The notes below the pieces were generated by a model that saw only the letters and a program-made list of their open reading frames with translations, had not been told where the DNA came from and searched no databases. Made by a program: the position numbers and the translations under genes. From Opitutales bacterium (GTDB lineage: Bacteria > Verrucomicrobiota > Verrucomicrobiia > Opitutales > PNEW01), in NCBI GenBank assembly GCA_965197745.1, contig CBDANS010000007.1, positions 1,280,001 through 1,344,000 on the forward strand: a stretch of DNA of 64,000 bases, in the 5' to 3' direction. Below are positions 17,567 to 59,470 of this stretch, one piece after another (positions within the stretch are counted from its first letter, which is position 1; each line of letters starts with the position of its first letter).

Positions 17567-17733
17567 TGCAATGATAACAGCGGAGTCGCAGATGACGCTG
17601 CGGAAGAATAGCCACAAGATGCACTAAAGGCACAAATAGATTTAAAATAGGAAGATCGGGATGAATGGACAGCGTTCAATAATTAATTGTTCTCAAGTGG
17701 TGAAATTGATCTGATCAAGATTTCTCACTCTCT

Positions 17734-17800
17734 TGTCATTGCGAGAGAGGCTATCAGCCGACCGCGGTTACCGAGCGCAGCGACATCTTCCATTTCAGGC
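17734..17800 (+). repeat. TGTCATTGCGAG-family REP-like arm carrying a 23-bp micro-insert (17769..17791)
   Basis: Matches the uninterrupted arm at 25657 except for TACCGAGCGCAGCGACATCTTCC. Confidence 0.7.
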
Positions 17801-18064
17801 GAATTATCATTGTGCTTACGAAAACCAGCATCCACATACTCTGCGCACTCAACGCCTCTGCGGTGATACTAAAGAATTAACCCGAAGACGCGGTAACACA
17901 GGGGAAGAGGATTTATGTGGTAACAGTTCAATATGCCTTAAATCGGTTATATAATAAAATTGCTGGAGGTTGACTATTTTAGCTAGAATGTAATTTGTGC
18001 TAATGAAGTTTATTTTTCATTTATTTTATTAATTCATTTAGACGGAAGACAGATATAAAATTAA

Positions 18065-19432
18065 ATGAAAGTTTTATTCCCATTTATTGCGCTGATGCTT
18101 TTCATCGTCGCGGTGCATGCTGCTGAAGAAGAGGCGTTATCGGATTTGATAGCGCGAGCGGAAGGCGGAGAGGCCGAGGCTCAATTTCTTCTGGGGATAA
18201 AGTATGAAAAAGGTGATGGTGTTACCTTGAACTTAATCGAGGCCTTTCGGTGGTATCAGGAAGCGGCCGAAGCAGGGTACGCTGCCGCGCAAAACAACCT
18301 GGCATGGATGTACGCCAATGGAAAATTTGTAGCCCGTAATTATGATGAAGCTTTAAAGTGGTATCGTGAGGCAGCCGGACAGGGGGATGTCAGGGGGCAA
18401 ACTACTCTGGGCTGGATGTACGCCAAGGGTCATGGTGTTGTTCAGGATTATAGGGAGGCCTTTAAATGGTACAGTCTGGCCGCTGAACAGGGTTTTGCCG
18501 AAGCCCAGGCTACCCTTGGGCTGATGTATTCCAAGGGCTTTGGGGTCGAACGGGATTATCTTGTAGCGCTCTCGTGGTTTCGGAAGGCTGCGGATCAGGG
18601 ACACGCTCAGTCGCAAACGAACATAGGAGTATTCTATGACCTGGGGCAGGGAGTGGATCAGGATTATGCTGAAGCGGCCAGGTGGTTTCGCAAGGCAGCA
18701 GACCAGGGGCATGCTCAGGCCCAATTCAACCTCGGATTTAAGTACCTCGAAAGCCAGGGGGTCGAACTCAATTATGCCGAGGCGCTTGAGCTGTTTCGTA
18801 AAGCAGCCGCTCAGGAATTTGCCGATGCCCAATATCTTTATGGGTGGATGCATGAAATGGGTCATGGGGTAGATCAAAATTATAGTGAAGCTGTCAGGTG
18901 GTATGACCTCGCGGCCGAACAGGATCACGATCCGGCCCGGGCTGATCTTGAGCGCATTAATAACTGGTATCATCAGATGGCGGAAGAGGGACATACCCCC
19001 AGTCTCCATAATCTTGGTAGTCTGTATTACTATGGATATGGCGTGGAACAGGATTATGTTGAATCGTTTGCGTGGTATCGTAAAGCGGCTGTAGCGGGAC
19101 ATCCCCCCGCACAATATGCTCTTGGGTCAATGTTCAACAGGGGACAGGGTGTGCGCCAAAATTTTAAGAAGGCAGTAAAATGGTACCGCAAAGCAGCTGT
19201 TCAGGGATACTCCCAAGCGCAACAAAATCTCGGTAAATCTTATTCTTATGGCGAAGGTGTTGAGCAGAATTATGTCGAGGCATACACCTGGTTCACAATT
19301 GCGGAAACTTCCGGTGATTCTGTGAGTAGAAGTAAGTTAGTTAGCCTTAAAACATCGATGATAGAGGCGCAAATTTCCGAAGCCCAACGAAAGGCTGAGA
19401 TCTGGCTGACTGAACACGTGAATAGTGAATAG
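18065..19432 (+). CDS. Secreted Sel1-like repeat protein
   Basis: Signal peptide; about ten AQxxLGxMYxxGxGVxxDYxEAxxWYxxAAxQG repeats. Confidence 0.95.
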   Translation: MKVLFPFIALMLFIVAVHAAEEEALSDLIARAEGGEAEAQFLLGIKYEKGDGVTLNLIEAFRWYQEAAEAGYAAAQNNLAWMYANGKFVARNYDEALKWYREAAGQGDVRGQTTLGWMYAKGHGVVQDYREAFKWYSLAAEQGFAEAQATLGLMYSKGFGVERDYLVALSWFRKAADQGHAQSQTNIGVFYDLGQGVDQDYAEAARWFRKAADQGHAQAQFNLGFKYLESQGVELNYAEALELFRKAAAQEFADAQYLYGWMHEMGHGVDQNYSEAVRWYDLAAEQDHDPARADLERINNWYHQMAEEGHTPSLHNLGSLYYYGYGVEQDYVESFAWYRKAAVAGHPPAQYALGSMFNRGQGVRQNFKKAVKWYRKAAVQGYSQAQQNLGKSYSYGEGVEQNYVEAYTWFTIAETSGDSVSRSKLVSLKTSMIEAQISEAQRKAEIWLTEHVNSE

Positions 19433-19874
19433 GATACAAGCTGACATGACTTATCATAAAATACTGCATTCAGTTTTTATTCTATCTTTGTGCGCGATCT
19501 ATAACGCGTGCAGTCCCGGTCAAGTTGTCGACTTTGAACTATCTCAAAGGAGTCTCATCGATCGAATCACCTCCGCCAACGCGCCTTTAATTCTCGATGT
19601 TCGAACTCCTGAAGAATATAGGGCGGGCCACATTCCCGGAGCGATCAATATCCCGCACACAATTTTGGCTGATCGTATCGAGGAATTAAGAGAATATAAT
19701 AATAAAGAAATAGTGGTTCATTGTGAAAGTGGACGTAGGGCAGGTTTGGCAGAGAGTGTCCTTCGTGAGGCAGGTTTTAATAAGATTCTCCATCTACAGG
19801 GCGATATGTCTGCCTGGCGTGAAAGTAATCTCCCTCAGGCTGAGGGATCTCAGCCCGATAAATCTCCAAATTAA
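19425..19874 (+). CDS. Rhodanese-like domain lipoprotein
   Basis: LDVRTPEEYRAGHIPGAINIP, active-site CESGRR; possible lipobox YNAC. Confidence 0.88.
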   Translation: MNRIQADMTYHKILHSVFILSLCAIYNACSPGQVVDFELSQRSLIDRITSANAPLILDVRTPEEYRAGHIPGAINIPHTILADRIEELREYNNKEIVVHCESGRRAGLAESVLREAGFNKILHLQGDMSAWRESNLPQAEGSQPDKSPN

Positions 19875-20045
19875 AACGCTGTTATCGCTTTTTCAGTCCA
19901 ATCACTAATAATATAGGCTATATTACCTATATATAGGGTAAAATACATTTATTTTTGTCTAGATAATACCTCTATTTTTCCTAAAATTGCATAAATCCGT
20001 GGTTGAGAATGTGCATAGTACTATTCTTGCGAGGTATGCAATTGT

Positions 20046-20615
20046 GTGCCTCTTGCGCTGTTTAAAAGAGTGCTCCCTGAAAAGGTTCATTGTGGATGGG
20101 GAGGGTTTGATTGGCGCATGTTAAGAGAAGTGCATAGATTGACATTAGTTGTTAATGTCTGCCTCGTAAGCATTGCCGTTTTTCTAACGGCATGTTCAAC
20201 CGTTACAGTTTCAGAGTCACCTATTCCAACGGCGCCTTTATCGAAAGCACAGGCTAAACTGATGGCCACTGTAATCAGTCAGACTTTTCCGGGTGGCATT
20301 ATAGCACAAGGAAATGGAGAGTCGATGAAACCGATCATGGGTGATAATACGATAGTCATTATTAAACCGGTGCCGGTTAAAGATTTAAAAGAGGGAATGA
20401 TCGTAGCCTACAAAGATAATGAATCCAATCATGTCATCCACCAACTGATTATCAAAATGAATGACAGTGGGGTGGTAAAAGGGTGGAATAATAAAATTGT
20501 AGATGAAGGCTTTGTCACCGAGGACAATTTGGTTGGGGTTATTTTAGGCATGTTATATTACGACCTTGGGACCGAAGCGGTTTCAGATGAACCTGCATAT
20601 TTGCTTAGGAAATAA
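20046..20615 (+). CDS. S24/S26-family peptidase (signal peptidase I-like), probable lipoprotein; start uncertain
   Basis: GESMKP serine motif, VIHQL, KGWNN; LTAC lipobox. Confidence 0.7.
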   Translation: MPLALFKRVLPEKVHCGWGGFDWRMLREVHRLTLVVNVCLVSIAVFLTACSTVTVSESPIPTAPLSKAQAKLMATVISQTFPGGIIAQGNGESMKPIMGDNTIVIIKPVPVKDLKEGMIVAYKDNESNHVIHQLIIKMNDSGVVKGWNNKIVDEGFVTEDNLVGVILGMLYYDLGTEAVSDEPAYLLRK

Positions 20616-20965
20616 AGAAATAGTAACCACGGATGTTGATTTAGAATAGTCGAATGTCAACGGGCTGAAATTGCGATCAAGTACCGTGTATCACCGGATC
20701 TTTTTTCCAACCTGTAATATTTTTAAATATCTATTCTTTTCCTGATTTCCTGAATTCTAAACACCTCAAATGTTTCCTTATATTGTTTCCGCGTCGATCA
20801 GTGCTATCCGCGGTTTATTCTCTCCTAATCCGCAATCTGCATTTGATATATATTAATAAATATTCTCTGCGACCTCAGCGTCTCAGCGGTTACTTTTAAT
20901 ATTCTCTTGTGCCTTTTGTGCTTTTTGTGGCTATCTTTCTTTTTAATTAGATTGAATAGATAGCC

Positions 20966-23167
20966 ATGCCATGTTCAGACGCAGAACAATCAGAAGCCGG
21001 TAGGGCGGAAATATCGCCGAGCGACCCCGTGCAAGCGGGCAGTTGGGGAACTTGGACGATAAGCTACAAGGTGCCGTCCGAGGGCATTGATGATGGGGGA
21101 TCCATTCGTATCGCTTTTCGATTTGCCAGTGATTGGGCGATCCCTCAATTGGAAAATCCAGCAGGTGACCATTACTTAAAAGTGACCGCTTCACGAAGTG
21201 AGACAAAGCTGATATGCAGTTGGAGAGCACGGGCTCATATCCGGCCGTATCAGCCCCATCTTTTCATAGAAATTCTCGACGCTCCTCTCGAATCGGGAGA
21301 TGAAATTACAATTATATACGGCGACACTTCCGGTGGGGGTAAGGGGACAAGAGCCCAGACCTTCGTTCAAGATGTGTTCGATTTTCAGATCGTTGTGGAC
21401 TGTCTGGGAACGGGTATCTATGAAAGCGTTAAAGATAACCCCGCACTGGAAATAGTTCCGGGAGATTCCCACCGCCTGGTCGTTCTTGCTACCGGTGATG
21501 GGTCAGCTGTTCACCCCGCAAAAGTTCTGGTCCGGGGTGAAGATATTTGGGGTAATGCGGTAAAAAATGATATTCCCGGTTCCGTTACCTTAAATCACTC
21601 AGGACCGGAAAATAATTTACCGGATGAGATTATACTGAATGGAGGATCGCATCGCTTCCCCGTTGTGGAATGCAAGGAGGATGGCATTCTGAGGATAGAG
21701 GCGGCGCATCCTCTACTGGGGGTAGCCGAATCGGGACCATTGATCATTGACCGAAAAAGGGAACTTCACAATTTCTGGGGTGACCTTCATGGGCAGAGCG
21801 GTGAAACGGTAGGGACGAATACTGCCGAGCAGTATTTTAAATACGCCAGGGACGCATCACTCTGTGATTTCGCAGGTCACCAGGGAAATGATTTTCAAAT
21901 TACGGATGAATTCTGGAATGAGATCAACCGGCTTGCGCGAGACCTGACTGATGAAGGAAAATTTATTGTTTTTCCGGGGTATGAATGGTCGGGGCTGACT
22001 CCTGTCGGGGGAGACCGCAATGTCCTGTTTCTCGATGAGGACCAGGTTATCCGTAGGTCTTCGACCGTTCTTGTAAAAGGGCAAAGCGAACAATTGGACG
22101 GGACTCCACTGCCGGATGTATACAAGGCTCTCAAAGAATCAGGGAGTGAATGCATCCTTATTCCTCACATCGGTGGCCGACGGGCGAACCTGAATTATTT
22201 TGACCCTGAGTTCGAACCGATAGTCGAAGTTCACTCCTGCTGGGGCAGCTTTGATTGGTTTTATCACGATGCTCTCCGACGCGGATATCGCGTAGGAGTA
22301 ATTGCCAACAGTGATGGGCACAAAGGACGCCCCGGGGCCGAGCATGCCGGAGCCGGTAAGTTCGGTGTATTCGGTGGCCTGACTTGTATCCTCGCGGAGA
22401 AATTCAACCGACCATCACTCTTTTCTGCTCTTAAATCCCGAAGATGTTACGGGACATCGGGACTACGGATTGTGGTTAATGCGAAACTGATGGGTCAGGC
22501 GATTGGAAGTGATTTGTCATCAGGCGTTGGGGCGTTGCCCCTTTCCGTTGAGGTGATCGGTACTGCTGCGATTGAAAAAATTGAGCTTCTCGCTGCCGGG
22601 CACAAAGTTAATTCCTGGGAGGGGAGTCCTTATGAGGATCGGCCCCAAAATATGATTCGTATACGTTGGACGGGTGCGCGCATCCTGAACCGGAACCGGG
22701 CGACTGACTGGAACGGCTCGTTAATAATTGAGGATAACAGGATAGCAGGAATTGAAGGCTTCGCATTTGATTCTCCCTCGGAAGGAATCCAGGATTGGAG
22801 CGGGAAGGGGGTGACATGGAAAAGTATTACTACCGGAGACGAAGATGGTCTTGTCCTTACCCTGGAAAAAGAAAGCGCAGGGCTCATTCATTTCGATTCG
22901 GGTCCGGTCAAGTGTCAGGTATCCTTTGATGAATTATTAAACGGACCCTGTGTGAAAGAAGCGGGAGGTGTAGGACAGAAAGTAATTTTTGAGTTAGCGC
23001 CAGCAAAGGATCAAATGGCCAGTGAAGTAACCTGGCAGGATAATATTACTCCTCATGAATTAGATGCTGTGGATGGCGTAGTCCCATTGCACCTGCGTGT
23101 TATTCAAGTAGATGGTCATCGCGCCTGGACCAGTCCCTGGTTCGTTCGATTGCGAAATGCGGAATGA
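20966..23167 (+). CDS. DUF3604-like PHP-type metallohydrolase
   Basis: WGDLHGQS, PGYEWS, IPHIGG, NSDGHKGRPG. Confidence 0.75.
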   Translation: MPCSDAEQSEAGRAEISPSDPVQAGSWGTWTISYKVPSEGIDDGGSIRIAFRFASDWAIPQLENPAGDHYLKVTASRSETKLICSWRARAHIRPYQPHLFIEILDAPLESGDEITIIYGDTSGGGKGTRAQTFVQDVFDFQIVVDCLGTGIYESVKDNPALEIVPGDSHRLVVLATGDGSAVHPAKVLVRGEDIWGNAVKNDIPGSVTLNHSGPENNLPDEIILNGGSHRFPVVECKEDGILRIEAAHPLLGVAESGPLIIDRKRELHNFWGDLHGQSGETVGTNTAEQYFKYARDASLCDFAGHQGNDFQITDEFWNEINRLARDLTDEGKFIVFPGYEWSGLTPVGGDRNVLFLDEDQVIRRSSTVLVKGQSEQLDGTPLPDVYKALKESGSECILIPHIGGRRANLNYFDPEFEPIVEVHSCWGSFDWFYHDALRRGYRVGVIANSDGHKGRPGAEHAGAGKFGVFGGLTCILAEKFNRPSLFSALKSRRCYGTSGLRIVVNAKLMGQAIGSDLSSGVGALPLSVEVIGTAAIEKIELLAAGHKVNSWEGSPYEDRPQNMIRIRWTGARILNRNRATDWNGSLIIEDNRIAGIEGFAFDSPSEGIQDWSGKGVTWKSITTGDEDGLVLTLEKESAGLIHFDSGPVKCQVSFDELLNGPCVKEAGGVGQKVIFELAPAKDQMASEVTWQDNITPHELDAVDGVVPLHLRVIQVDGHRAWTSPWFVRLRNAE

Positions 23168-23241
23168 CCGATAGCGGATTTGATTCAACCGCTGTCTCTC
23201 CGCTATGACATAGCAGAATTAACAGTGAATAATAATCATTT

Positions 23242-23750
23242 CACCGCAGAGACGCGGAGGACGCCAAGTTATAGAATAATAAAATAAGATTATTGTCGGG
23301 TAATAATACTTCTCTGCGATCTCAGCACCTCAGCGGTTGCTATCAATCTTCCTGTTGTCATCGCGAGGCTGCTTGTCAGCCGTGGCGATCCAGGCGTCTA
23401 TCAATACGTGGTCGGCATATGCCTGGTATGGAAGATGTCGATACGCTATGGTATACCAGAGGTAACAGTGAATAATAATCAGTTCACCGCAGAGGCGCGG
23501 ATGAATCAGTGAACAGTAAACAGTGAACCGTGAACAGTAGAGAAATTAAATATGATCGCTATTGTATCCTCTATTGTCATTGCGAGGAGCAACGCAATGA
23601 CTAAAGAATGAATAAGCTGTATATGCTTAATATCCAATTCCAGGTTGCACACCTATTGTAAGTGCTAATCACGTTCGGTAAATAGGTGGAGAAATAAGGT
23701 CAATATGCTTTAACTAGAAACATTTGTATTCTCAGCGTCTCTGCGGTTAC
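23242..23750. repeat. Intergenic mosaic of CACCGCAGAGACGC-type palindromes, TGTCAT(T/C)GCGAG arms and CAGTGAA heptamers
   Basis: Arms near 23242/23312, 23355, 23485, 23575 and 23730; heptamers at 23507-23540. Confidence 0.65.
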
Positions 23751-23776
23751 TATTAATAATTAAACAGCTCGACAGT

Positions 23777-25450
23777 TTATTCACTATAAAAAAACTGGAA
23801 GGCATATAAACTGGCTTCCAACAAATGGAAACAAAGCCGGACTGGTTTGTTCCACAATGCGCTTACATCCGTCTTGCCCCGCCAGGTGACTTTGTGCCAG
23901 ATCTGCCCTTTGGGAGCGTGAACAGGATCGCAGTTCTTTGCGGAAAAACCTGCGTAGGGCTCGAACTTGGAGTCTAAAATTTCCACGCGAATGAAGCCAT
24001 AGTCACAGTCGGCATTAATCATCAGTGAGTCCCCTTCGAAGACGAACTGTTTTGTATAAACCTTCCCCTGTTCATAGGTCGGTTTGAGTTTTGCCCAGCC
24101 GTCTTCGCGCAGGATCAAACCGCCAATCGCTCGCTGAAGCTGGAGTTCGGGTCGCACCTGATTCATCATCGGATTGCCGATACCGTGTTGAGTGAGTGCT
24201 TCCACGTGTTCTCTGGATGCTTGGGCTGATGCTGCCGGGACATGATCGGCCGTGCCAGCCGGTCGGGTATCGCGTTGTTTGTAGGGGAAAGCGGAGTAGG
24301 GGATAACTATCTGACCGTTGTGTAAAAGATTGCCGGCGACCGAATGACAACAGTAGCCGTAGTCCTGGCTTCCGGGGTCACCGTTATCACCCCAGGGCTG
24401 GTACCCATCGGCGCGTACGAAATTCGTGCCGTCACGGCTGACGTAAAGGGCAGCCTTGGTGTGAAACTGGTCATGCTGATTGCTCCCATCGCGATTGAGC
24501 AGCCACTGATGTTCCCCATGTGCCTCGTCGACTATACCGATGTAGAGACTGCCTTCTTTGCGTATCGACATGGTGTGGAGTTCGACGTTTGGCCCCAGAT
24601 TGGGATCCCACTCACTCGAAAGGATCACCTTTTTAGGCGACCATTTGATAAAGTCCTCGCTCTCTTGAAGACCGATCGTTCGCAGATGATTATGGCTCCA
24701 GGCGTGTGAGTGTTGAGAATAACCCAGCCACATCTGTTGCGACTCATCCCAGATCACTCGCATTTGATGGTGATGTCGAAAGGAAGTGGAGTCGCTGATC
24801 ACCTGCCAGTGGATACCGTCGGGTGAAGCAGAAACGCGTGACATCACCCGTTCACTACGCTTGAAAGCTTCCGCTCCGGGATTGTAGACGGCAAGAAATT
24901 TCTTGCTGGGATCGCTGCGGTCTGGATTGAGGACTAGGGTCCCATTATCAAAATCAGTTGCGACGATATTCGTCTTGGTCTCATTTTCGAAGGGCTGACA
25001 ATCAGACGACAGCGGTTTCGTCCAATGAATGGCATCCTCAGATTCGGCATAGCAGAGGACGACGCGGGTACCATCGGCAAAATTGGTGTTGCCGCTGACC
25101 AGCGTCTTGTACCACATTTTGAATAGTCCATCATCGGGGTCTTTTAAGGCTGCAGCACATACGCAGGTCCAGTGATAGCGCTCCCAGGGCAGGTCGGTGT
25201 ATTCGATCAGGGGCTCAGATTTTTGGGGTCGGACGACGACGCGTTCTACGCCATCGAAATCAGCGAGAATAAAATTATCGAGAAGGAGCTGTTTATCGGT
25301 CCCGATGTGGGTAAAAGGCAGTTCGTAAGGTGGATTAAAATAGGGGTAGGTCGCCTTTTCGACCGGACGCTTCTGGGACCAGGTTTCATCCATACAACGT
25401 TTCAGATCGAGGGTTTCGGTGGGGCTTTTAGGTTCAGGCAGACGGGTCAT
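23777..25450 (-). CDS. Beta-propeller glycoside-hydrolase-like hypothetical protein (GH32/43/130-like fold)
   Basis: FKMWY, YAESEDAIHWTKP, SPDGIHW repeats, LREDGW and C-terminal beta-sandwich. Confidence 0.65.
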   Translation of the reverse strand: MTRLPEPKSPTETLDLKRCMDETWSQKRPVEKATYPYFNPPYELPFTHIGTDKQLLLDNFILADFDGVERVVVRPQKSEPLIEYTDLPWERYHWTCVCAAALKDPDDGLFKMWYKTLVSGNTNFADGTRVVLCYAESEDAIHWTKPLSSDCQPFENETKTNIVATDFDNGTLVLNPDRSDPSKKFLAVYNPGAEAFKRSERVMSRVSASPDGIHWQVISDSTSFRHHHQMRVIWDESQQMWLGYSQHSHAWSHNHLRTIGLQESEDFIKWSPKKVILSSEWDPNLGPNVELHTMSIRKEGSLYIGIVDEAHGEHQWLLNRDGSNQHDQFHTKAALYVSRDGTNFVRADGYQPWGDNGDPGSQDYGYCCHSVAGNLLHNGQIVIPYSAFPYKQRDTRPAGTADHVPAASAQASREHVEALTQHGIGNPMMNQVRPELQLQRAIGGLILREDGWAKLKPTYEQGKVYTKQFVFEGDSLMINADCDYGFIRVEILDSKFEPYAGFSAKNCDPVHAPKGQIWHKVTWRGKTDVSALWNKPVRLCFHLLEASLYAFQFFYSE

Positions 25451-25656
25451 GGATATCCTTTGGGTTATTGTTGGATCAAGTTATTGTTAGCCGGATCTGA
25501 CTAAAATCGTCTTTGAGAGAAATCAACAACATTTGTCTTTGATTCGTTGCTCTGGTAAGCTTCCCATTGTTGAAGGTGAGCATCACTGGCTTTATTATGA
25601 CACAGCTTGTGTCTTTGGTGTATTAGTTTTATGTCGAATAGCTACAACCTTCTATT

Positions 25657-25927
25657 TGTCATTGCGAGAGAGGTTATTAGCCGAACGCGGCAATCCAGGG
25701 AGATGTCAAAACGCGTCCGATATTCCCCTGGAGTGATAGATGTCCATCTGTCGTACGAGAATAATGACGACAGAATAAATTAATGACAAAAAGAATAAAT
25801 CGATAATCGATAAGAGCAAAGTAAACACTTACATTCAGGGTCCAATATCAAGCAACCGACTATTCGCCTGGAATGTAAGATGTCGCTGCGCTCGGTAGTC
25901 GCGTCGCGTTGCTCCTCGCAATGACAA
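25657..25927. repeat. TGTCATTGCGAG-family REP-like palindromes; the right arm carries a 23-bp micro-insert (25875..25897)
   Basis: TGTCATTGCGAG at 25657 and CTCGCAATGACA ending at 25926. Confidence 0.7.
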
Positions 25928-26097
25928 TGGGTGGAGGAGCTACTTGTCCGATATAATACCGCACTCAAGACTACACAGGGATATCTGACGACGAAGATTA
26001 TTGCTAAACCTGGTTATACTGGTAACTAAGCATTGGCTTATAATTTTATAAAACCGAAGACCACCAGCTTCAAAAAACCCCCGGTCGGTAAAAAGTC

Positions 26098-28134
26098 ATG
26101 GAACTAATCAGATTCAGCAGCTACCGGATTCATATTATTATGGTGATGGCAATCACCGCTGTTTTTTTTGGCTGCAGCAGGAACCATGACGCTCAGTCAA
26201 CAGGCGAACCGGGCAAACCTGGTGGAGCCGTGGTCAGCACCGAAGGGTTCAGTTTTATTTATAAAGGTTCACTTCCCACCTCATTCAGCGAAGCGCCAGA
26301 ATTGGCAAAGCGTGTTGCCGCGGGGGAGTTGCCGCCGGTTGAAGATCGCATACCGGAAGAACCGTTGATTATTCCCCCTATCGAACGCATCGGCCAGTAC
26401 GGTGGCATCTGGCGACGTGGTTTCACGGGTCGAGCTGATCGCAACAACTTCGACCGTATAGTCCATGACCATTTAATTTACTTTGACTTCGACGGCTACA
26501 CCCTGGTCCCCCATATCGCTAAATCTTGGGAGATCAGTGAAGACGGGACTACTTTCACTTTCCACTTACGCGAGGGCATGAAGTGGTCTGATGGGGCCCC
26601 GTTCACGGCTGACGACTTTGTCTTCGCCTTCGAAGATGTGACCTTGAATGATAATATCAACCCGGTAAAACACATCTACTTTAAGACAGATGGAAAACTG
26701 TTCAAAGTGGAAAAGTTAAATGAGAACACGGTTCGTTATACCTTTCAAATACCGAACTATATGTTCACCGAGAATGTTGCTGGATTAGCTATTGGGGGCC
26801 AGTTCATTCGCCAATGGGGTAGCCCACTGTTTGCCCCCCGCCATTACCTGATGCAGTTTCTTCCGAAGTATACCTCCACAAGTGAACTGAATAATAAAGT
26901 GAAGGCCTCTGGAGATAAAAGCTGGGTGCAACTCTTTATGCGTATGGCTTCCCCTCACGAGAACCGTGATTTGCCGGTGGTCGCGCCCTGGAAGATGGTA
27001 ACACCGATAACCACTGATGTTTACTCTTTGGAGCGTAACCCCTATTACTTTGCGGTGGATCCCCAGGGAAATCAACTCCCCTATATCGATAAGATTGTCA
27101 GCCACCTGAGTGAGGACTTGGAGGTATTCAATGCGCGCGTGATGACCGGTGAAGTGGACATGCAGCACCGACATGTCATGTTGGATAAGGTTCCTGTGCT
27201 AAAGCGCGAAGCAGCAAGAAATAATTACCGCGTGCTCATCTGGCCTAATTCAGGAGGATCAGACGCCGCGATCATTATTAATCAAACCTGGGAGGGGGAC
27301 CTGGAAATAGAAAAACGGCTTCGAGACCGTGATTTTCGGATTGCCCTTTCTCTTGCCATCGATCGGGAGGAAATAAATGAATCAATATTTCTGGGCATGG
27401 GTAATCCAAGAGCCTACGTGGCCACTCCGAATAATGAGTATTATCCCGGCCCTGAATATGAAAAAAAATACGCGGTGCGCGATCTGCATAAAGCCAATGA
27501 GATCCTCGATAAATCAGGCCTCGAGAGAAGAGACCGCGAGGAGTACCGCCTGCGGACTGACAATAATGAACGGCTTATTATCACCCTCTCAGTTTTGAGG
27601 CAGGCGATGGTAAATTTTGAAGGTGTAGCTGAATTACTCGTGAACCACTGGAAGGATATCGGCATAAATATTCATTTAAGTGTTGAAGAGCGAAGTTACT
27701 ATAGCAGACGCGGATCGACCAATAAACATCAGCTTAGCATGTGGGTATCAGGTGGAACGGCAAATCCCTGGACTTCCGGGTCGCTGACCTGTCCCATTGG
27801 TAATGGTGGTTTCGCCCCACTCATCGGCACCTGGTATTTAAATGACGGTCAAAAGGGTGTAGCCCCTGCCGGCGATCTTAAACGATTACTGGAAATATTT
27901 GAGGAAGGCAACAGGATCCCCAGAAATTTGCGAATGGAACTGGGTAAAGAATTATGGAGAATTCATACTGATAACCTTTTTATGATTGGGACCGTTGGGC
28001 AATCTCCGGCCATGAACGGCGTTGTCGTGGTGAAAAATAATTTCCGCAATGTACCGGATGTCGCTCCTAACAGCTCACGAATACAAAACCCTGGCATCGC
28101 CCGACCCGAACAATTCTTTTTTGAGCGAGAGTGA
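26098..28134 (+). CDS. ABC transporter substrate-binding lipoprotein, family 5 (paralog 1)
   Basis: Lipobox FFGC; ELPPVEDRIPEEP, YGG, LREGMKWSDGAPFTADD, GNQLPYID. Confidence 0.92.
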   Translation: MELIRFSSYRIHIIMVMAITAVFFGCSRNHDAQSTGEPGKPGGAVVSTEGFSFIYKGSLPTSFSEAPELAKRVAAGELPPVEDRIPEEPLIIPPIERIGQYGGIWRRGFTGRADRNNFDRIVHDHLIYFDFDGYTLVPHIAKSWEISEDGTTFTFHLREGMKWSDGAPFTADDFVFAFEDVTLNDNINPVKHIYFKTDGKLFKVEKLNENTVRYTFQIPNYMFTENVAGLAIGGQFIRQWGSPLFAPRHYLMQFLPKYTSTSELNNKVKASGDKSWVQLFMRMASPHENRDLPVVAPWKMVTPITTDVYSLERNPYYFAVDPQGNQLPYIDKIVSHLSEDLEVFNARVMTGEVDMQHRHVMLDKVPVLKREAARNNYRVLIWPNSGGSDAAIIINQTWEGDLEIEKRLRDRDFRIALSLAIDREEINESIFLGMGNPRAYVATPNNEYYPGPEYEKKYAVRDLHKANEILDKSGLERRDREEYRLRTDNNERLIITLSVLRQAMVNFEGVAELLVNHWKDIGINIHLSVEERSYYSRRGSTNKHQLSMWVSGGTANPWTSGSLTCPIGNGGFAPLIGTWYLNDGQKGVAPAGDLKRLLEIFEEGNRIPRNLRMELGKELWRIHTDNLFMIGTVGQSPAMNGVVVVKNNFRNVPDVAPNSSRIQNPGIARPEQFFFERE

Positions 28135-28141
28135 TCGGTGG

Positions 28142-28273
28142 CGAGTGTCGAGTGTCGAGTGTCGAGTGTCGAGTGTCGAGTGTCGAGTGTCGAGTGTCGA
28201 GTGTCGAGTGTCGAGTGTCGAGTGTCGAGTGTCGAGTGTCGAGTGTCGAGTGTCGAGTGTCGAGTGTCGAGTG
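28142..28273 (+). repeat. Perfect heptamer tandem repeat (CGAGTGT)x18 plus partial unit
   Basis: Directly visible; starts 8 bp after the SBP stop codon. Confidence 0.98.
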
Positions 28274-28312
28274 AACAGTCGTTTTCTTTCTAACATATTT
28301 CAGAGATTATTA

Positions 28313-28404
28313 CATCATATATTATGCCAATGGTGGAGCGGGCTGCCTGACGGCCATAGTCCCGCCACCGCGGGACGACGGCTGTTCCCAAGCACGCTTC
28401 TTCA
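28313..28404 (+). repeat. About 90-bp post-SBP repeat, copy 1 (copy 2 near 31420..31510), with nested hairpin insert
   Basis: catatattatgccaatggtggagcgggctgcctgacggccatagtcccgcc..gcgggacgacggctgttccc.agcacgcttcttca occurs twice. Confidence 0.9.
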
Positions 28405-28494
28405 TGATTACTTATTATAAACGCCGCGTTCCACCTATATATTATAGTAAATATCTGTCTGGCCGAATATGAAGATTTAATAATAAATGCTATC

Positions 28495-28697
28495 AACCCC
28501 GGAGGGGTGTGATAAATGTAACCCACAGCGCGAGCTGTGGGAGATTTAAACGTTAAAATAATAAAGCCCCAGCGGGGTGACACAAAATATCTTCCGACTG
28601 TAATTGTGTCGCCCCTCTGGGGCTCTGGGTTAAATAATATCTCTCAACCACACAGCTTACGCTGTGGGCTAAGCATTTACCGCCCCTCTGGGGCTGT
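28495..28697. repeat. REPIN-like large palindrome built from CCCC-N-GGGG hairpins
   Basis: ccccggagggg / cccacagc..gctgtggg / gccccagcggggtgacacaa mirrored by ttgtgtcgcccctctggggc. Confidence 0.7.
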
Positions 28698-29038
28698 GAG
28701 ATTTATGTGTATATTTATATGGGAGAATAAATGGATGATTCTAAGTTTATTGATTATCTTAATTATACTGATAACTAACAATGACGAAACATTTACATTA
28801 TAACCTGCCCATATGTGTTTTTTTTTCTTCTTTCAAATTATACACCTATTATCATCGCGAGGCTGTTTATCAGCCGTGGCGATCCAGGGGAATAGTCATT
28901 ATGCTTACACATACTGGACTTCAGTGAACAGATCACCGCAGAGACGCTGAGTAAATGGATCCATTATGCAAGGTGCAGGATTCAAGGACAGTGATCAGTT
29001 ATCAGTAATACCTCAGTGGTTACAATCAATTCACCTAT

Positions 29039-29172
29039 TGTCATCGCGAGGTTGCTGGGCAACCGTGGCGATCCAGGGGAATGTCAATACGTGACCGGCA
29101 TTCCCTTGGAATGAAAGCTGTCGGGCTTCGCCCTCGATAACCGCAGTCGGCTACGCCTCCTTCGCAATGACA
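29039..29172. repeat. Complete TGTCAT(C/T)GCGA palindromic element with a 27-bp micro-insert in the right arm (29113..29139)
   Basis: TGTCATCGCGAGG ... CCTTCGCAATGACA termini. Confidence 0.75.
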
Positions 29173-29318
29173 AGTAGAAGACTGAGAATATGAAAATGAC
29201 ATTGTAGTGAATAGTTGAATATACATATACGAAGATTATTGCCAATCGAATATATACTGATAACTAACAATAGTTCTAATATTCATTATACGATGTCACG
29301 TCAGGTCTATTAAGCGAT

Positions 29319-31352
29319 ATGGTGATAAACAATTTCAGCAGCAGTCGGATGCCGGGCACACTAATGATGATGGCAATCATAATTGCCGTATTGGGCTGCA
29401 GCGGAAATAGTAATACCCCACCAGCAAATGAATCGGATATGGTAGAACGGACCGCGGTCAGTACCGAAGACTTCAGCTTTATCTATAAGGGGCCGCCACC
29501 GACCACCTTCAGTGAAGCGCCGGAACTGGCGGAGCGCGTGGCAGCGGGGGAATTGCCGCCTGTTGAAGAGCGGCTACCCGAAGAGCCGTTAATTATTCCG
29601 CCCATCGAGCGCATTGGACAATACGGTGGAACCTGGCGACGAGGATTCACGGGGTATGACACTAACAACGTCGACCGAATAATTCATGACCACGTGATTT
29701 ACTTCGACATCGATGGTTACACTCTCATGCCTCACATCGCTAAAGGATGGGAAATCAGTGAAGACGGGACAACATTCACTTTCCATCTGCGCCGGGGCAT
29801 GAAGTGGTCTGATGGAGCCCCGTTCACAGCCGATGACTTTGTCTTCGCTTTCGAAGAAGTGATTTTGAATGATGATATCAACCTGGCAAAACCCAGTTAC
29901 GCAAAAGCGGATGGGCAACTGTGCAAAGTAGAAAAGTTGGATGAGACCACCGTTCGTTATACCTTTCATAAACCCAACTATGTGTTCATCGAGAATGCTG
30001 GTGGTTTAAAAATAGGTGGCCAGTTCGTTCAAGGTGGGAATCATCCACCCTACGCACCCCGGCATTATTTAAGGCAGTTTCTCCCGAAGTATACCCCCTT
30101 AAGTGATCTGAAAAGTAAAACAAAAGTGAAAGGGTTGAGAAGCTGGGTGGAACTATTCAAACACATGGCTTCACCCCACAGAAACCCTGACTTACCGGTA
30201 GTCGGTGCCTGGAAATTGGTCACTTCGATAACGAGTGAAATATACTCTTTGGAACGCAACCCCTATTACTTTGCCGTCGATCCCGATGGGAATCAGCTTC
30301 CTTACATCGACAAGATTCTATTGCGCCGGTTTGAGGACGTGGAGGTGTTCAATGCACGCGTCATGGCCGGTGAGGTGGATATGCAACATCGTCATGTTCT
30401 TTTAGACAAAGTCCCTGTTCTCAAGCGTGAAGAAGACAAGGGTGATTACCGCTTACTTTTATGGCCTAATTTAGGAGGTTCCGACGGTTTCATCTATGTT
30501 AACCAAACCTGGAAGGGAGACCCGGAAATAGAAAAATGGCTGAGAAGCCGCGATTTTCGGATGGCCCTTTCGCTTGCCATTGATCGGGAGGAGATAAACG
30601 AATTGATTTTTCTGGGCATGGGTAGGCCGAGAGCTTTCCTTCCATTCCCCGATAACCCGTATTATCCCGGTCCTGAATATGAGAATAGGCATGCGGTTCG
30701 CGACTTGAAACAATCCAGCGCGATTCTCGACGCTGTCGGATTGAATAAGAAAGACAGTGAAGGATACCGCTTGCGTACTGACAATCAGGAACGTCTGGTC
30801 ATTAACATATCAGTACCTAGTCAGTCTTTGATTGATTTTGAAGGGATCGCTGAACTTTTCGTTAATCACTGGAAAGATGTCGGTCTTAAATTACATTTAA
30901 GCGTTGAAGGGGAAAGTTACCATGGCATACGCGCGGCAAACAATGAACTTCATCTTAGGATGTGGGTTTCCGGCGGTTCTGAAAATCCGTGGACTTACCC
31001 TAATATGACCATACCCATCTTTCGCGGTACCTTCGCGTCACTCATCGGATTATGGTATGAATCTAACGGTCGAAAGGGCGTAGCCCCTTACGGTGATCTT
31101 AAACGTTTGATAGAAATATTTGATGAAGGTAATGGCCTACCCAAAGCGATGCGAACGGAACTGGGTAAAGAAATATGGAGAATCCATTCAGACAATCTCT
31201 ATGTTATTGGCACCGTCGGCCAATCCCCGGCCATGAACGGCGTTGTCGTCGTAAAAAATAATTTTCGCAATGTTCCCGATGTCGCGCCTAACAGCGCAGC
31301 ATTGCAAACCCCGGGAATTGCCCGGCCCGAACAGTTCTTTTTTGAAAACTGA
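29319..31352 (+). CDS. ABC transporter substrate-binding lipoprotein, family 5 (paralog 2)
   Basis: Lipobox VLGC; colinear with and highly similar to 26098..28134. Confidence 0.92.
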   Translation: MVINNFSSSRMPGTLMMMAIIIAVLGCSGNSNTPPANESDMVERTAVSTEDFSFIYKGPPPTTFSEAPELAERVAAGELPPVEERLPEEPLIIPPIERIGQYGGTWRRGFTGYDTNNVDRIIHDHVIYFDIDGYTLMPHIAKGWEISEDGTTFTFHLRRGMKWSDGAPFTADDFVFAFEEVILNDDINLAKPSYAKADGQLCKVEKLDETTVRYTFHKPNYVFIENAGGLKIGGQFVQGGNHPPYAPRHYLRQFLPKYTPLSDLKSKTKVKGLRSWVELFKHMASPHRNPDLPVVGAWKLVTSITSEIYSLERNPYYFAVDPDGNQLPYIDKILLRRFEDVEVFNARVMAGEVDMQHRHVLLDKVPVLKREEDKGDYRLLLWPNLGGSDGFIYVNQTWKGDPEIEKWLRSRDFRMALSLAIDREEINELIFLGMGRPRAFLPFPDNPYYPGPEYENRHAVRDLKQSSAILDAVGLNKKDSEGYRLRTDNQERLVINISVPSQSLIDFEGIAELFVNHWKDVGLKLHLSVEGESYHGIRAANNELHLRMWVSGGSENPWTYPNMTIPIFRGTFASLIGLWYESNGRKGVAPYGDLKRLIEIFDEGNGLPKAMRTELGKEIWRIHSDNLYVIGTVGQSPAMNGVVVVKNNFRNVPDVAPNSAALQTPGIARPEQFFFEN

Positions 31353-31536
31353 CTTTATAATTATATACAATTAATCTTCGTCTTCGTCTTCTTCCCAACA
31401 AATATCAGACAATATTAACTTCATATATTATGCCAATGGTGGAGCGGGCTGCCTGACGGCCATAGTCCCGCCATCGCGGGACGACGGCTGTTCCCTAGCA
31501 CGCTTCTTCAATTACAATAATCTAATACACACCTAT

Positions 31537-31682
31537 TGTCATCGCGAGGTTGCTGGTCAACCGTGGCTACCGAGTCCCGCGACTGCGGGCCGACATCTTA
31601 CATTCTAGGGGGCTGTCAATACGTGACCGGCATTCCCCTGGATTGCTTCGGCTCCCGCGGTTGCGGAATCCTCGCAATGACA
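31537..31682. repeat. Complete TGTCATCGCGAG palindromic element with a 34-bp micro-insert in the left arm (31568..31601)
   Basis: Homologous to the 29039 element (shared tgtcaatacgtgaccggcattccc core). Confidence 0.78.
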
Positions 31683-31774
31683 AAGGGAATCATAACCGCA
31701 ATCCGATATCCGAAATCCGCAATTGTACCACAGAGTTGACTAAAATTAATTAGCTTAAATGATGTTGCGATCTT

Positions 31775-36516: not shown

Positions 36517-36670
36517 GTTTTATGTGTTAGGTTTTAAGTTTTATGTGTTAGGTTTTAGGTTGGGAAGTTTCCGTTTTGGAAGATGTCGTTCGGCGAATGC
36601 GGAACTCGGAACCGGCTTTTCGAGCCTCTCTTCCTTTTTGACATTTTGACCTTTTGACCTTTTGACTTTC
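36508..36670. repeat. Short tandem 7-mer and 8-mer arrays
   Basis: (ggttttaagttttatgtgtta)x2 and (cttttgac)-type units. Confidence 0.7.
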
Positions 36671-49363: not shown

Positions 49364-50714
49364 TGGAGTGACCCCCAAAAATGGTATCATTAACAGAGAG
49401 AGGTTATCGGGATAAACAGATAACCTCAATGAAAAGAAAAAGATATACAACAGAACAGATCATAGCAATACTGCGGCAGCCCGATACGGGCAAAACCGTG
49501 CAGGAAGTCTGCCACGGCAACAACCTAAGTGAACAGACCTTCTATCGCTGGGGCAAAAAGTATGGCAACTTGGAGCTGGCTGATGCGAAGCGATTTAAAG
49601 AGCTGGAAAAGGAGAATACGGAGCTGAAGAAGATGCTCGCTGATCAAATGCTCAAGCTTCGGGTGTTGGAGGAAACGCTCTCAAAAAAATGGTGAGCCCA
49701 AAGCAGAAGAAGCGAGCAGTAAAAGATGCGGCTGAGAAGGGGCTGTGCTCGTTTTAGAGGGCTTGTGCTTATCTCAGCCTCAGTTGGTCAACGTACAGCT
49801 ACCGACCCAAGCAGGCCAGTAAGAAGGCTCAGCAATTGGCCGAGCGGATTTTGACCTTGTCCTGGGAACATCCCCGTTACGGTTACCGGCGCATTCGTGC
49901 CTTGCTGGTGAAAGAAGGTTGGGCGGCAAGCAGGAAATTTGTACAGGCAGTGCGACGTTCTTCGGGCTTACAGGTAAAGCCCCCGAAAAAGCGTAGACAC
50001 CGTCAGGGGATCTCTACTGGGCTCCCTACTAAAGCAACCGGTCGCAATCACGTCTGGTCCTGGGACTTTGTCCATGATCGTACAGACAATGGCGGTATGC
50101 TAAAGATGATGACCTTGATCGATGTACCGAGGAGCTGAAAGCGACGACACTCAAGCGAAGCGAAGACATATACGCGTAAATGTTTACGCATCCGGGTAGC
50201 TCGACAGCTCACCTCAACCGATGTTCTCTCGGTACTCAGCGAAACCATCGATGAAGAGGGAGTTCCTAGCTATATCCGCAGTGACAACGGCAGTGTTCCG
50301 AGGAGCGAAGCGACGACATGCGAAGCCATTCATTGCTCATCAGGTGCAGCAGTGGTTGTCCGACAAAAAGATCAAGGCGATATATATCGATCCGGGCAGT
50401 CCCTGGCAAAACGGTTTCATCGAGTCGTTTCACAACCGCTTACGCGATGAGTGTTTGAACCGTGAAGTGTTGCTCAGCGTGGCTGAAGCGCAAGTGCTAA
50501 TAGAACAATGGCGTCAGACCTATAACAATGAACATCCCCACAGTCGATTAGGCTTTAAAAGCCCACAAGAGTTTGTCACATTCCTTTCCGCTCTTGGCCG
50601 CGTTCGGGCTACGCCCTCACTGCGCCAAGATCTCTCATATACATCAATCCTAAAACCATTAATACCCGGTAACTCTCTCACATAATAATTGGTACGAAAA
50701 ACGGGGTCCAATCA
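49364..50714 (+). mobile_element. IS3-family element (orfA 49429..49695; orfB disrupted by two micro-inserts)
   Basis: TG..CA ends with imperfect IRs (TGGAGTGACCCC / TGATTGGACCCC); A7 slippery site; WSWDF, SDNG, PGSPWQNGFIESF. Confidence 0.93.
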
Positions 50715-57114: not shown

Positions 57115-57477
<363 letters not shown>

Positions 57478-58152: not shown

Positions 58153-59470
58153 TGGTCGTGACCACGAAAACTGGTACACTTGAAAAGTTAGTCTGGGTAA
58201 CCTAGAAAGGACTCAGACAATGAAAGGCAAAAGATACACAACTGAAGAGAAAATACGGATGCTGCGGCAGGCGGACAAAGGGAAAACGATCCTGGAAGCA
58301 TGCCGCGAGAACAACATTAGCGAACAGACCTTCCACCGCTGGAAACGTGAGTTTGGGATGATTGATGTCAACCAGGCCAAGCGGATGAAGGAGCTCGAGA
58401 AGGAGAACGCGCGGTTAAAACGGATGCTGGCGGACAAGATGCTGGGGATAGAGATCCTGCAGGAGACCCTCGAAAAAAAACTGTAAGCCCTGGGCACAAG
58501 CGGCAAGTGGCAGAGAGACTTGTGACTCGGGGCCAGTGTTCGATGCGAGCGGGGTGCCGGTACTTTCGGCTGCACCGTTCCACCTATGCGTATAGGGCCA
58601 AGCATCCGGATGCCTGGCTAACGGAAACTAAAAGCGGCAGTAAGGCGGTTATCACGGCAATACGCGAGGTGGGGCTATCCCAAGATCACGAAGCTGTTGA
58701 AGGACGAAGGCTGGCAGGTGGGTAAACGTCTCGTGCAAGGTCTGCGACGTGAACTGGGTCTGGCGATCCCCCCACGCAAGCCAAGACGCCGGCGCAGGGG
58801 TGTCTGCACCGGGCTACCGACAAAGGCCGAACATCCCGACCATGTTTGGACCTGGGATTTTATCCACGATAAGACGGTCCGCGGTGGCAGTTTAAAAATG
58901 TTGACCGTGCTCGATGAGTACACCCGCGAGTGCCGGGTGATCCATGTTGATCGCCATATCAATGCGGAAACGGTGCGCGGTATCATGCAAAAACTGCTCG
59001 ACCGGCATGGGCCGCCAAAATATATTCGCAGTGACAACGGTTCCGTTCCGAGGAGCGAAGCGACGACATGCAAAGCCATTCATTGAAAAGGAATTGAGAG
59101 CCTGGCTAACTGCGATGAAAATCAAAACCCTCTATATCGAACCAGGAAGCCCTTGGCAGAACGGATACATCGAATCGTTGCATGCCCGTTTTCGCGAGGA
59201 GTGTTTAAACCGTGAACAGCTATGGACTTTGACCGAAGCCCGCGTGGTGATCGAGGACTGGCGCTGGCTTTACAATAATGTCCGACCCCACCGCAGCCTC
59301 GGCAATATCACCCCACGGTGCTTCGCTGAAGACATTAATACCGAAGGCTTGGGCTCCATTCGGGCTACGCCCTCATTGCGCCCAAGCCTTGACTTCCTCT
59401 ACCAACTTAACTTCAACATTAACCTCTCCAGACTAACTCTCTCGGTGGACCAGTTTACGTAACCCGATCA
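58153..59470 (+). mobile_element. IS3-family element (orfA 58220..58486; orfB with a frameshift near 58625 and a 32-bp micro-insert)
   Basis: IRs TGGTCGTGACCACGAAAACTGGTACAC / TGATCGGGTTACGTAAACTGGTCCAC; A8 slippery site; WTWDF, SDNG, PGSPWQNGYIES. Confidence 0.93.

Follow-up and report, generated by a model that had tools for sequence, protein, structure and literature searches.

Dispersed repeats of 20-35 nt that occupy exact points of other sequences without a target duplication have been unexplained since 2008, and in the literature searched they have been reported only from Nostocaceae. Elhai et al. are said to have described small dispersed repeats (SDRs), SDR1-8, in Nostoc punctiforme and relatives in that year (Genome Res 18:1484). 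These repeats are reportedly nested in heptamer arrays and small transposons, and a hairpin is reportedly common to SDR4-6. SDR5 of Nostoc, 21 nt in length, lies between the third and fourth base of GCGATCGC (PMC13756078). In the passages devoted to them, Nostoc SDRs are left unexplained in mechanism and function (PMC5861425, PMC4390886, PMC13756078), and they are reported only in Nostocaceae and said to be absent elsewhere. In this study, we describe a dispersed repeat of comparable size, termed module X, in a 64,000-nt stretch of DNA (hereafter the window; C7:1280001-1344000, C7 being contig CBDANS010000007.1) from an Opitutales bacterium whose assembly, G000, comprises 4.45 Mb with 45% G+C. 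Within the window, module X is nested in the arms of palindromes that themselves belong to a known class of repeats.

This class is that of the CGTC-tagged repetitive extragenic palindromes (REPs). As defined in the original survey, these repeats carry an unpaired CGTC or TGTC tag, a stem opening with AT, and a CCA tail, and they occur as head-to-head dimers; they form a superfamily for which no transposase was found and which includes Neisseria dRS3 (Di Nocera et al., 2013; PMC3733652). A 2025 study redefined dRS3 as NTS, the motif that SsnA recognises (Chenal et al., 2025; PMC11893778). SsnA, a GIY-YIG nuclease of 94 aa, binds this hairpin exclusively in the form of single-stranded DNA (ssDNA) and cuts 3 nt upstream, and its gene is typically flanked by the motif in the arrangement NTS-ssnA-NTS (PMC11893778). 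Smaller modules nested in such repeats are described neither in PMC3733652, as judged by a text search for "nested" and "inserted", nor in the Discussion and the parts of Results and Methods of PMC11893778 that were covered. Literature searches likewise returned no description of such modules for Verrucomicrobiota and none nested in CGTC or SRM repeats, SRM being the Ssn-related motifs.

By description, the closest known parallel of module X is the SDRs of Nostoc, as far as the papers cited above portray them. Both are of oligonucleotide size (21 nt for SDR5 and approximately 21-27 nt for SDRs as a class, 23-34 nt for X), both are present in many copies, and both are placed exactly in another short repeat, X at GGC^(A/G)ATCC, without target duplication. 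They differ in phylum, X being found in Opitutales; in their hosts, which for X are GIY-YIG-associated arms and IS3 (insertion sequence) genes; and in that HIP1, expected alongside SDRs in heterocystous cyanobacteria, is not enriched in G000 (100 copies vs approximately 68 expected). The host arms share with the published CGTC REPs the TGTC tag, the AT-opening stem, the CCA(GG) tail, and the head-to-head dimers, and the host element, known here from sequence, shares with the Ssn systems as published the inverted copies flanking a single-domain GIY-YIG gene of approximately 95 aa. In contrast to those repeats, the stems of the arms are interrupted by nested modules and are missed by the SRM pattern. 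X itself resembles these repeats in having a TGTC tag directly 5' of a hairpin on its other strand; it differs from them in its 2-7-bp G/C-closed stem and in lacking the AT opening and the CCA tail. Very small hairpin inserts with preferred short targets, often nested in repeats, are also represented by the mobile G+C clusters and double-hairpin elements of fungal mitochondria. These are organellar and lie in an AT-rich context, and short target duplications are reported for them.

Very small nested dispersed repeats are of a kind known from the published accounts of Nostoc; new here are the recognition of what the host arms are, the linked change at the junction, the comparison of filled and empty sites across species, and the tests of enzyme co-occurrence. 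With module X, such repeats are represented in a second, unrelated lineage by hundreds of copies, in three types of host for which matching empty sites exist, and with a shell of flanking sequence conserved across families. X is also physically tied to the repeats of a small nuclease of the GIY-YIG kind, from a family shown in 2025 to cut ssDNA beside such hairpins (PMC11893778), which provides a testable enzyme candidate. Our overall reading, to which we assign a rough probability of 0.55, is that X is an SDR-like module in the arms of Ssn-like elements that enters an arm rarely, moves from arm to arm by conversion, and reaches new places by a nuclease-initiated copy-in.

The family was assessed by regular-expression and pattern scans with controls. 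The consensus of module X is TACCGA-G(stem-loop-stem)C-GACATCTTCC, that is, TACCGAG-hairpin-CGACATCTTCC; the hairpin is closed by G..C and its stem sequence is free. The pattern T(A/T)YCGAG-hairpin-CGACA put forward by a first-pass annotation, which had been made from the letters of the window, proved real: it matched the genome 294 times, compared with 44 matches in a reversed-sequence control. The excess increased with the pairing demanded, from 280 vs 34 matches with the closing G..C to 62 vs 3 with at least three nested pairs and 49 vs 1 with at least four. Three main classes of 23, 27, and 34 nt were distinguished. Their hairpins are, respectively, a 7-nt mini-hairpin of the form G-C-(GNA)-G-C (17-nt core class), an 11-nt hairpin of the form G-NNN-loop3-NNN-C (21-nt core class), and an 18-nt hairpin of the form G-N6-loop4-N6-C (28-nt core class).

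Covariation of the stem, another expectation of the first-pass annotation, was recovered by shuffle tests in the two longer classes. Among 25 distinct cores of the 11-nt class, 89% of the pair cells were standard, compared with 78% after shuffling of partners, and none of 1000 shuffles reached 89%; pair 2 was GC, CG, or AT, pair 3 was GC, GT, AT, or TA, and pair 4 was CG, TA, or TG. Among 17 distinct cores of the 18-nt class, the values were 85% and 80% (2 of 1000 shuffles). Stems unrelated in sequence yet paired occurred across classes and genomes, for example GGGC/GCCC, GGAC/GTCC, GAGC/GCTC, GCGT/ACGC, GTT/AAC, and TCCCGC/GCGGGA. The consensus, the shells in other genomes, and the covariation together support the earlier proposal of a single family of tiny modules, in which the flanks are conserved and the base-paired stem can be exchanged. 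Read on the opposite strand, module X is TGTC-G(stem)C-TCGG, a TGTC-tagged mini-hairpin. Tested as a miniature inverted-repeat transposable element, X showed shell ends that are not mutual inverted repeats and no target duplication.

The host palindromes are TGTC-tagged arms of REP type, of the CGTC superfamily. They form the inverted ends of an element of approximately 460 bp that carries a GIY-YIG gene, and they also occur as many gene-less head-to-head dimers. A search of the genome for the GIY-YIG family returned eight places, four of which hold a small open reading frame (ORF) bracketed by inverted TGTCATTGCGA arms that lie approximately 120 nt away on each side. These four comprise two intact twins encoding a 97-aa protein, one copy with a stop, and one pseudogene. 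GIY-YIG is the only Pfam family found in the 97-aa ORF (E 3e-13); its best solved relative is the 107-aa UPF0213 protein BH0048 (E 1.5e-5), and in NCBIfam it yields only a weak match to group I intron endonucleases, below the cut-off of that model. The twin elements lie outside the window at C7:1541877-1542338 and C7:1545543-1546004; they are approximately 460 bp long, 99% identical, 3.6 kb apart, and in opposite orientation. Each consists of arm, 97-aa GIY-YIG gene, and arm, and they appear to be the autonomous form of the palindromes in the window.

A total of 124 classified arms fit TGTC-AT..AT-CCAGG, with a TGTC tag, a stem opening with AT, and a CCA(GG) tail, and 61 head-to-head pairs of arms were found genome-wide. 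That the arm stem is real is shown by perfect covariation between position 7 and the junction base among the 84 empty arms (T with A in 66/66, C with G in 18/18). The stem of 8-9 bp with a loop of 4-5 nt that characterises CGTC REPs was not found in the arms, which hold nested modules of 9-27 nt between the stem halves. The arm's own inner module reads CGTC-hairpin-CTCG on the opposite strand, the same form as X. Since X and the inner module are built alike, the arm is a stack of such units. In another family of the order, a homologous nuclease gene is embedded in a closely packed tandem series of over 20 arms (G015:C1:6584-9868); these arms end in GATCCAT in place of CCAGG, and none of them carries module X.

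Genome-wide, 84 arms were classified as empty and 40 as filled (41 filled with a looser parse). X follows the ..GGC of the arm and precedes the (A/G)AT by which the arm stem is closed, and it faces forward relative to the arm in 44 of 44 X-carrying arms, the sole reverse match belonging to the partner arm. Junction alignments of arms, arrays, and homologous elements bore out two earlier statements, that a clean target duplication is absent and that the junction is ambiguous by 1-2 nt. The expression "empty and filled alleles" was a misnomer, the arms being paralogous repeats, and a caution applies to such comparisons: filled and empty pairs among paralogous repeats can reflect conversion between repeats, not insertion.

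The filled state is linked to a change at the junction. X is followed by ATT in place of AAT or GAT, a change at the next-but-one base, in 36 of the 40 filled arms, including three C-type arms where GAT would be expected, and by AAT in the other four. Empty arms never show ATT after the retained A or G, and none equals the sequence that a fresh insertion would need; among approximately 85 insert-free arms (the 84 classified as empty and one more), only that one has the sequence of a filled arm from which X is removed. In the sister genus, an exact CGACATCTTCC was followed by ATT 26 times, ACT 6 times, AAT once, and GTT once in G001 (n=34), and ATT 30 times, ACT 5 times, AAT once, and something else four times in G002 (n=40). 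Because the linked ATT change is shared with the sister genus, most filled arms have the appearance of an old composite lineage that recombination has spread, and not of four fresh insertions in the window. For the arms, the ATT linkage and the missing empty target speak against the earlier view of filled and empty arms as a simple insertion and its target. The opposite possibility, which the first-pass annotation had named as fatal to its own proposal, that the filled form is a fixed ancestral REP subfamily, is nearly borne out by the ATT linkage in three genomes, but filled arms turn up among all arm types, homologous nuclease elements of three species differ in their filling, and X exists outside the arms as well. 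A junction rule with one A fewer was also tried for the arms and was ruled out, TCTTCCATCCAGG occurring 0 times.

The distribution of X over the arms is reticulate. Each arm class contains empty arms as well as arms with several X classes, and every X class is found in at least three arm classes. In alignments of homologous nuclease elements, the upstream arm is filled in G000, the downstream arm in G001, and neither in G002. The arms starting at 29039 (empty) and 31537 (filled) are identical at 30 of 31 positions 5' of X; 3' of X they differ at 5 of the first 12 positions and at none of the following 24. This pattern looks like a replaced patch longer than X, as a conversion tract would leave. 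The two window dimers follow tandem paralogues of a family-5 solute-binding protein (26098-28134 and 29319-31352), each gene being followed by a head-to-head dimer in which a different arm is filled. The paralogues share 69% protein identity, compared with the 30/31 match of the left arms of the dimers, so the repeats are either younger than the gene duplication or homogenised. Among 32 classified dimers, 13 had both arms empty, 18 had one arm filled, and one had both filled, compared with approximately 3 of the last kind expected, numbers that are small.

Module X also occurs outside the arms. In GCCAC/GCACAAAA arrays, 22 sites were found, of which 11 are filled with X, 10 are empty, and one holds another insert; the filled sites have one A fewer than the empty ones. 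Empty sites of this second host, TAGCCAC + (GCACAAAA)n, lie in the window at 17609-17633 and approximately 20909-20933(-). Further copies are present in AACCCTG arrays (again with one A fewer), in CAATCG-type heptamer arrays, in two other repeats, at fixed codons of IS3-type genes, and in 5' leaders. The preference for other mobile DNA that had been suggested was thus upheld, X being found almost only within other repeated or mobile DNA. The companion statement that ordinary genes contain none needed qualification, since in a rough check 8 of 87 good copies lay in open frames of at least 200 aa. In the five longest of these frames, all X copies are 24-110 nt from the frame start. The first ATG is approximately 20-30 nt downstream of X in four of them, two of which also have an in-frame TTG or GTG just before X; one of the five, C6:562593, is ambiguous. 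At C6:304148, C7:944132, C7:2056900, and C7:1599729, X lies in CAATCG-type heptamer arrays approximately 20-30 nt upstream of the first ATG and in the orientation of the gene, and these copies may affect leaders. At C6:1377397(-), X is bordered 5' by a heptamer array and 3' by the inner part of a palindrome arm, which suggests that recombination took place at X.

The exact 18-nt shell was found in five genomes: 42 copies in G000, 66 and 84 in G001 and G002 of the sister genus, and 6 each in G015 and G040, which belong to two other families. It was absent from the 36 other relatives searched (0/36), and a backwards control gave no match in any genome. That three families of the order carry an identical shell around differing paired stems points to either a conserved trans-acting reader or recent transfer. 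An even sample of 400 genomes of the phylum contained only three single matches to the shell. A scan of genomes of all species returned at least 103 loci, and the records with more than one match among them were Opitutales; among the matches listed, 12 of 102 had at least three nested pairs. Approximately 300 chance matches were estimated for the pattern in 596 Gb, and the non-Opitutales matches among those listed resemble chance matches or a conserved stretch of coding sequence.

Close homologues of the 97-aa nuclease (at least 65% identity) were found in four of the five X-bearing genomes (G000, G001, G002, and G015) and in 0 of the 36 others. The GIY-YIG nuclease was ranked first, as the most specific candidate, on the strength of its physical link to the host repeat and of the tag of X, which is of its kind; the step from cutting to copying-in would have to be added to its action. 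A second small GIY-YIG type, of 82 aa, is present in 12 of 41 genomes and absent from G040, and it was set aside as the enzyme of X for being widespread and unspecific. GIY-YIG genes and genes of the Y1 type, which are considered below, both co-occur imperfectly with X, and neither association is decisive with three independent lineages.

The overall reading can be put as a series of steps. X would be introduced into an arm rarely. Filled arms would then spread mainly by patch-wise copying, through gene conversion or template switching, among the approximately 125 arms, and also by propagation of the arms themselves. X may reach new hosts through a hairpin-dependent, nuclease-initiated copy-in on single-stranded DNA, for which initiation by the element's own Ssn-like GIY-YIG nuclease is a candidate step.

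Several points weigh against this reading. GIY-YIG enzymes only cut, and we know of no mobility shown for Ssn elements. Hairpin covariation can arise without selection, by intra-strand templated repair (quasi-palindrome mutagenesis); since such repair could mimic compensatory change, the stem is supported and selection on it is not proven. The 7-nt hairpins (17-nt class) showed no significant covariation (352 of 1000 shuffles), and single X copies folded no better than shuffles in thermodynamic folding (z -0.2 to -0.6). The published degenerate SRM pattern matched the genome 16 times, compared with 19 times in the reversed control, and none of its matches was one of these arms, because nested modules interrupt the arm stems. 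The junction rule differs by host: filled sites have one A fewer in the GCCAC and AACCCTG arrays, but in the arms no A is missing and a base is changed. Presence/absence polymorphism was not observed, the contigs that bridge the copies at 25875 (four public runs) and 17769 (one run) being only filled; Logan contigs mostly break at repeats and few bridge them, so the bridging contigs are uninformative on mobility. We therefore infer mobility only from paralogues and from species-level comparisons. The five X-bearing genomes represent three lineages and are kin, not independent, and one of them, G040, has six exact-shell copies and no homologue of the 97-aa nuclease at E <=1e-5. Finally, the cut made by Neisseria SsnA lies 3 nt 5' of its motif (PMC11893778), a position that would be outside the arm and not at the X site.

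In an alternative explanation, X in the arms would be immobile and filled arms would be an old structural repeat subfamily with a duplicated and diverged inner module, scattered by ordinary recombination and varied in their hairpins by templated repair. The linkage of X to ATT in G000 (36/40), and to ATT or ACT in G001 (32/34) and G002 (35/40), agrees with this explanation, as do the lack of suitable empty targets, with one insert-free ATT arm, the CGAG-hairpin-GAC form common to X and the inner module, and the absence of polymorphism in four runs. It accounts poorly for the occurrence of the same 18-nt shell as a bounded unit in other, unrelated hosts for which matching empty sites exist, and in IS genes as well; for a shell identical in three families of the order with differing stems; and for four G000 arms that carry X with the AAT junction intact. 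We consider it unlikely, and place it first among the alternatives. Very improbable, by comparison, is that X is kept by selection as a functional motif, a protein-binding site or an RNA hairpin in leaders or 3' ends, or that it spread through an RNA intermediate. Five copies lie a few tens of nucleotides upstream of likely start codons in gene orientation, and the shell is conserved across families; most copies, however, lie inside transposase genes, arms, and arrays in both orientations, and the window has no Rfam match except tmRNA.

The first-pass annotation had favoured a structure-recognised ssDNA element moved by an HUH transposase, and an enzyme of the Y1, IS200/IS605, or RAYT-like type that cuts and pastes X would explain the missing target duplication, the hairpin with a free stem, and the conserved shell. 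Like X, REPs and REPINs with RAYT and elements of the IS200/IS605 group are hairpin-centred, leave no target duplication, and are proposed ssDNA substrates. Homologues of a Y1_Tnp-domain protein occur in five of five X-bearers (1 match in G000, 6 in G001, 3 in G002, 2 in G015, and 64 in G040), including G040, which is without a GIY-YIG candidate; the same family was also detected at E <=1e-20 in 6 of the 36 X-less genomes. The only Y1_Tnp gene of G000 (C6:161880-165206) encodes 198 aa and is followed by a 171-aa ORF, whereas its relatives are open over 300-350 aa, and it may be split by a frameshift; it has no flanking hairpins and is not bracketed by module X. Six repeat copies of the Y1 gene in G040 have no X-like motif at their ends. 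The bases 5' of X vary (GGC, CAC, CTG, TCG, TAC, and CAG), so no fixed target word is present, and no bias toward either replication strand, and hence no leading-strand preference, was seen for X in arms (20/19), in other good copies (28/19), or in IS-borne copies (55/63), all non-significant. X differs from the RAYT and IS200/IS605 systems in having neither a GTAG tag nor an X-flanked transposase, and in having a single hairpin, down to 7 nt, not two ends. The HUH idea was thus left without specific support, the Y1 homologues in all five bearers notwithstanding; we judge it improbable and place it after the immobile-subfamily explanation.

An extension of the nuclease-initiated copy-in reading is more doubtful still than either of these two alternatives. 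X and the inner module of the arm could be the smallest units of a nuclease-driven system in which an ssDNA-specific GIY-YIG nuclease of approximately 97 aa reads TGTC/CGTC-tagged mini-hairpins and, by cutting, prompts the templated copying of oligonucleotide-sized patches into fixed points of other mobile DNA, namely its own arms, codons of IS3 transposase genes, and tandem arrays. If true, nuclease-driven copy-in would give DNA a new, transposase-free way to spread, one that would disable or remodel other mobile elements.

The features of the window are listed in the table. The four X copies named in the first-pass annotation were exact in position and letters, and the empty arms that it placed at 25657, 29039, 23355, and 28851 were present within 1 nt (25657, 29039, 23356, and 28850). 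A fifth empty arm, at 31682(-), had been absent from its list. Each of the four copies lies within a TGTCAT(T/C)GCGA arm, after ..GG(C/T) or ..GAC and before ATT(C/T)(C/T)A.

Table. Module X copies, host arms, and related inserts in the window (positions relative to the window; ^ marks a junction).
Feature	Position	Strand	Details
Solo TGTC-tagged host arm	17734..17768	+	Approximately 40 nt after the insert resemble the 3' flank of the GIY-YIG element
Module X, mini-hairpin class	17769..17791	+	Core GCGCAGC; junction GGT^X^ATTTCAGG
Empty arm, C-type	23356..23393	+	TGTCATCGCGA...GTGGC^GATCCAGG
Empty arm, T-type	25657..25699	+	..GCGGC^AATCCAGG
Module X, mini-hairpin class	25875..25897	-	In arm starting 25926(-); junction GAC^X^ATTCCAGG
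Empty arm, C-type	28850..28887	+	Degenerate tag TATCAT
Head-to-head arm dimer	29039..29172	.	Left arm empty, right arm (29172, -) filled
Module X, 21-nt-core class	29113..29139	-	Stem GGGC/GCCC, loop GAA; variant shell TATCGAG..CGACAGCTTTC
Head-to-head arm dimer	31537..31683	.	Left arm filled, right arm (31682, -) empty
Module X, 28-nt-core class	31568..31601	+	Stem CCCGC/GCGGG, loop GACT
Further module X member	36584..36617	-	TTCCGAG-TTCCGC..GCCGAA-CGACATCTTCC; not within a palindrome arm; beyond the span first reported
X-related insert in IS3-type transposase gene	50296..50318	+	Sisters at 50125-50149 and 59046-59068

The first of the two dimers is predicted to form one long ssDNA hairpin (z -3.1 in folding against shuffles). 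The insert in the IS3-type gene has the 5' shell and CGACA in common with module X and differs in its tail. Just past the first solute-binding-protein gene, a tandem array of the 7-mer GAGTGTC extends over 28129-28273 (20.7 copies, 96% matches) without module X. Elsewhere in the genome, a tRNA-linked nuclease element was found at C7:1844703-1847846. At approximately 1250-1840 of this locus, a 78-aa GIY-YIG ORF adjoins a tRNA gene, and after the ORF comes a duplicated tRNA fragment in which a CCCGC..GCGGG hairpin takes the place of the 5' part. A transfer-messenger RNA (tmRNA) gene is located at 57115-57470 of the window (Rfam RF00023, 137 bits) and is its sole Rfam match.

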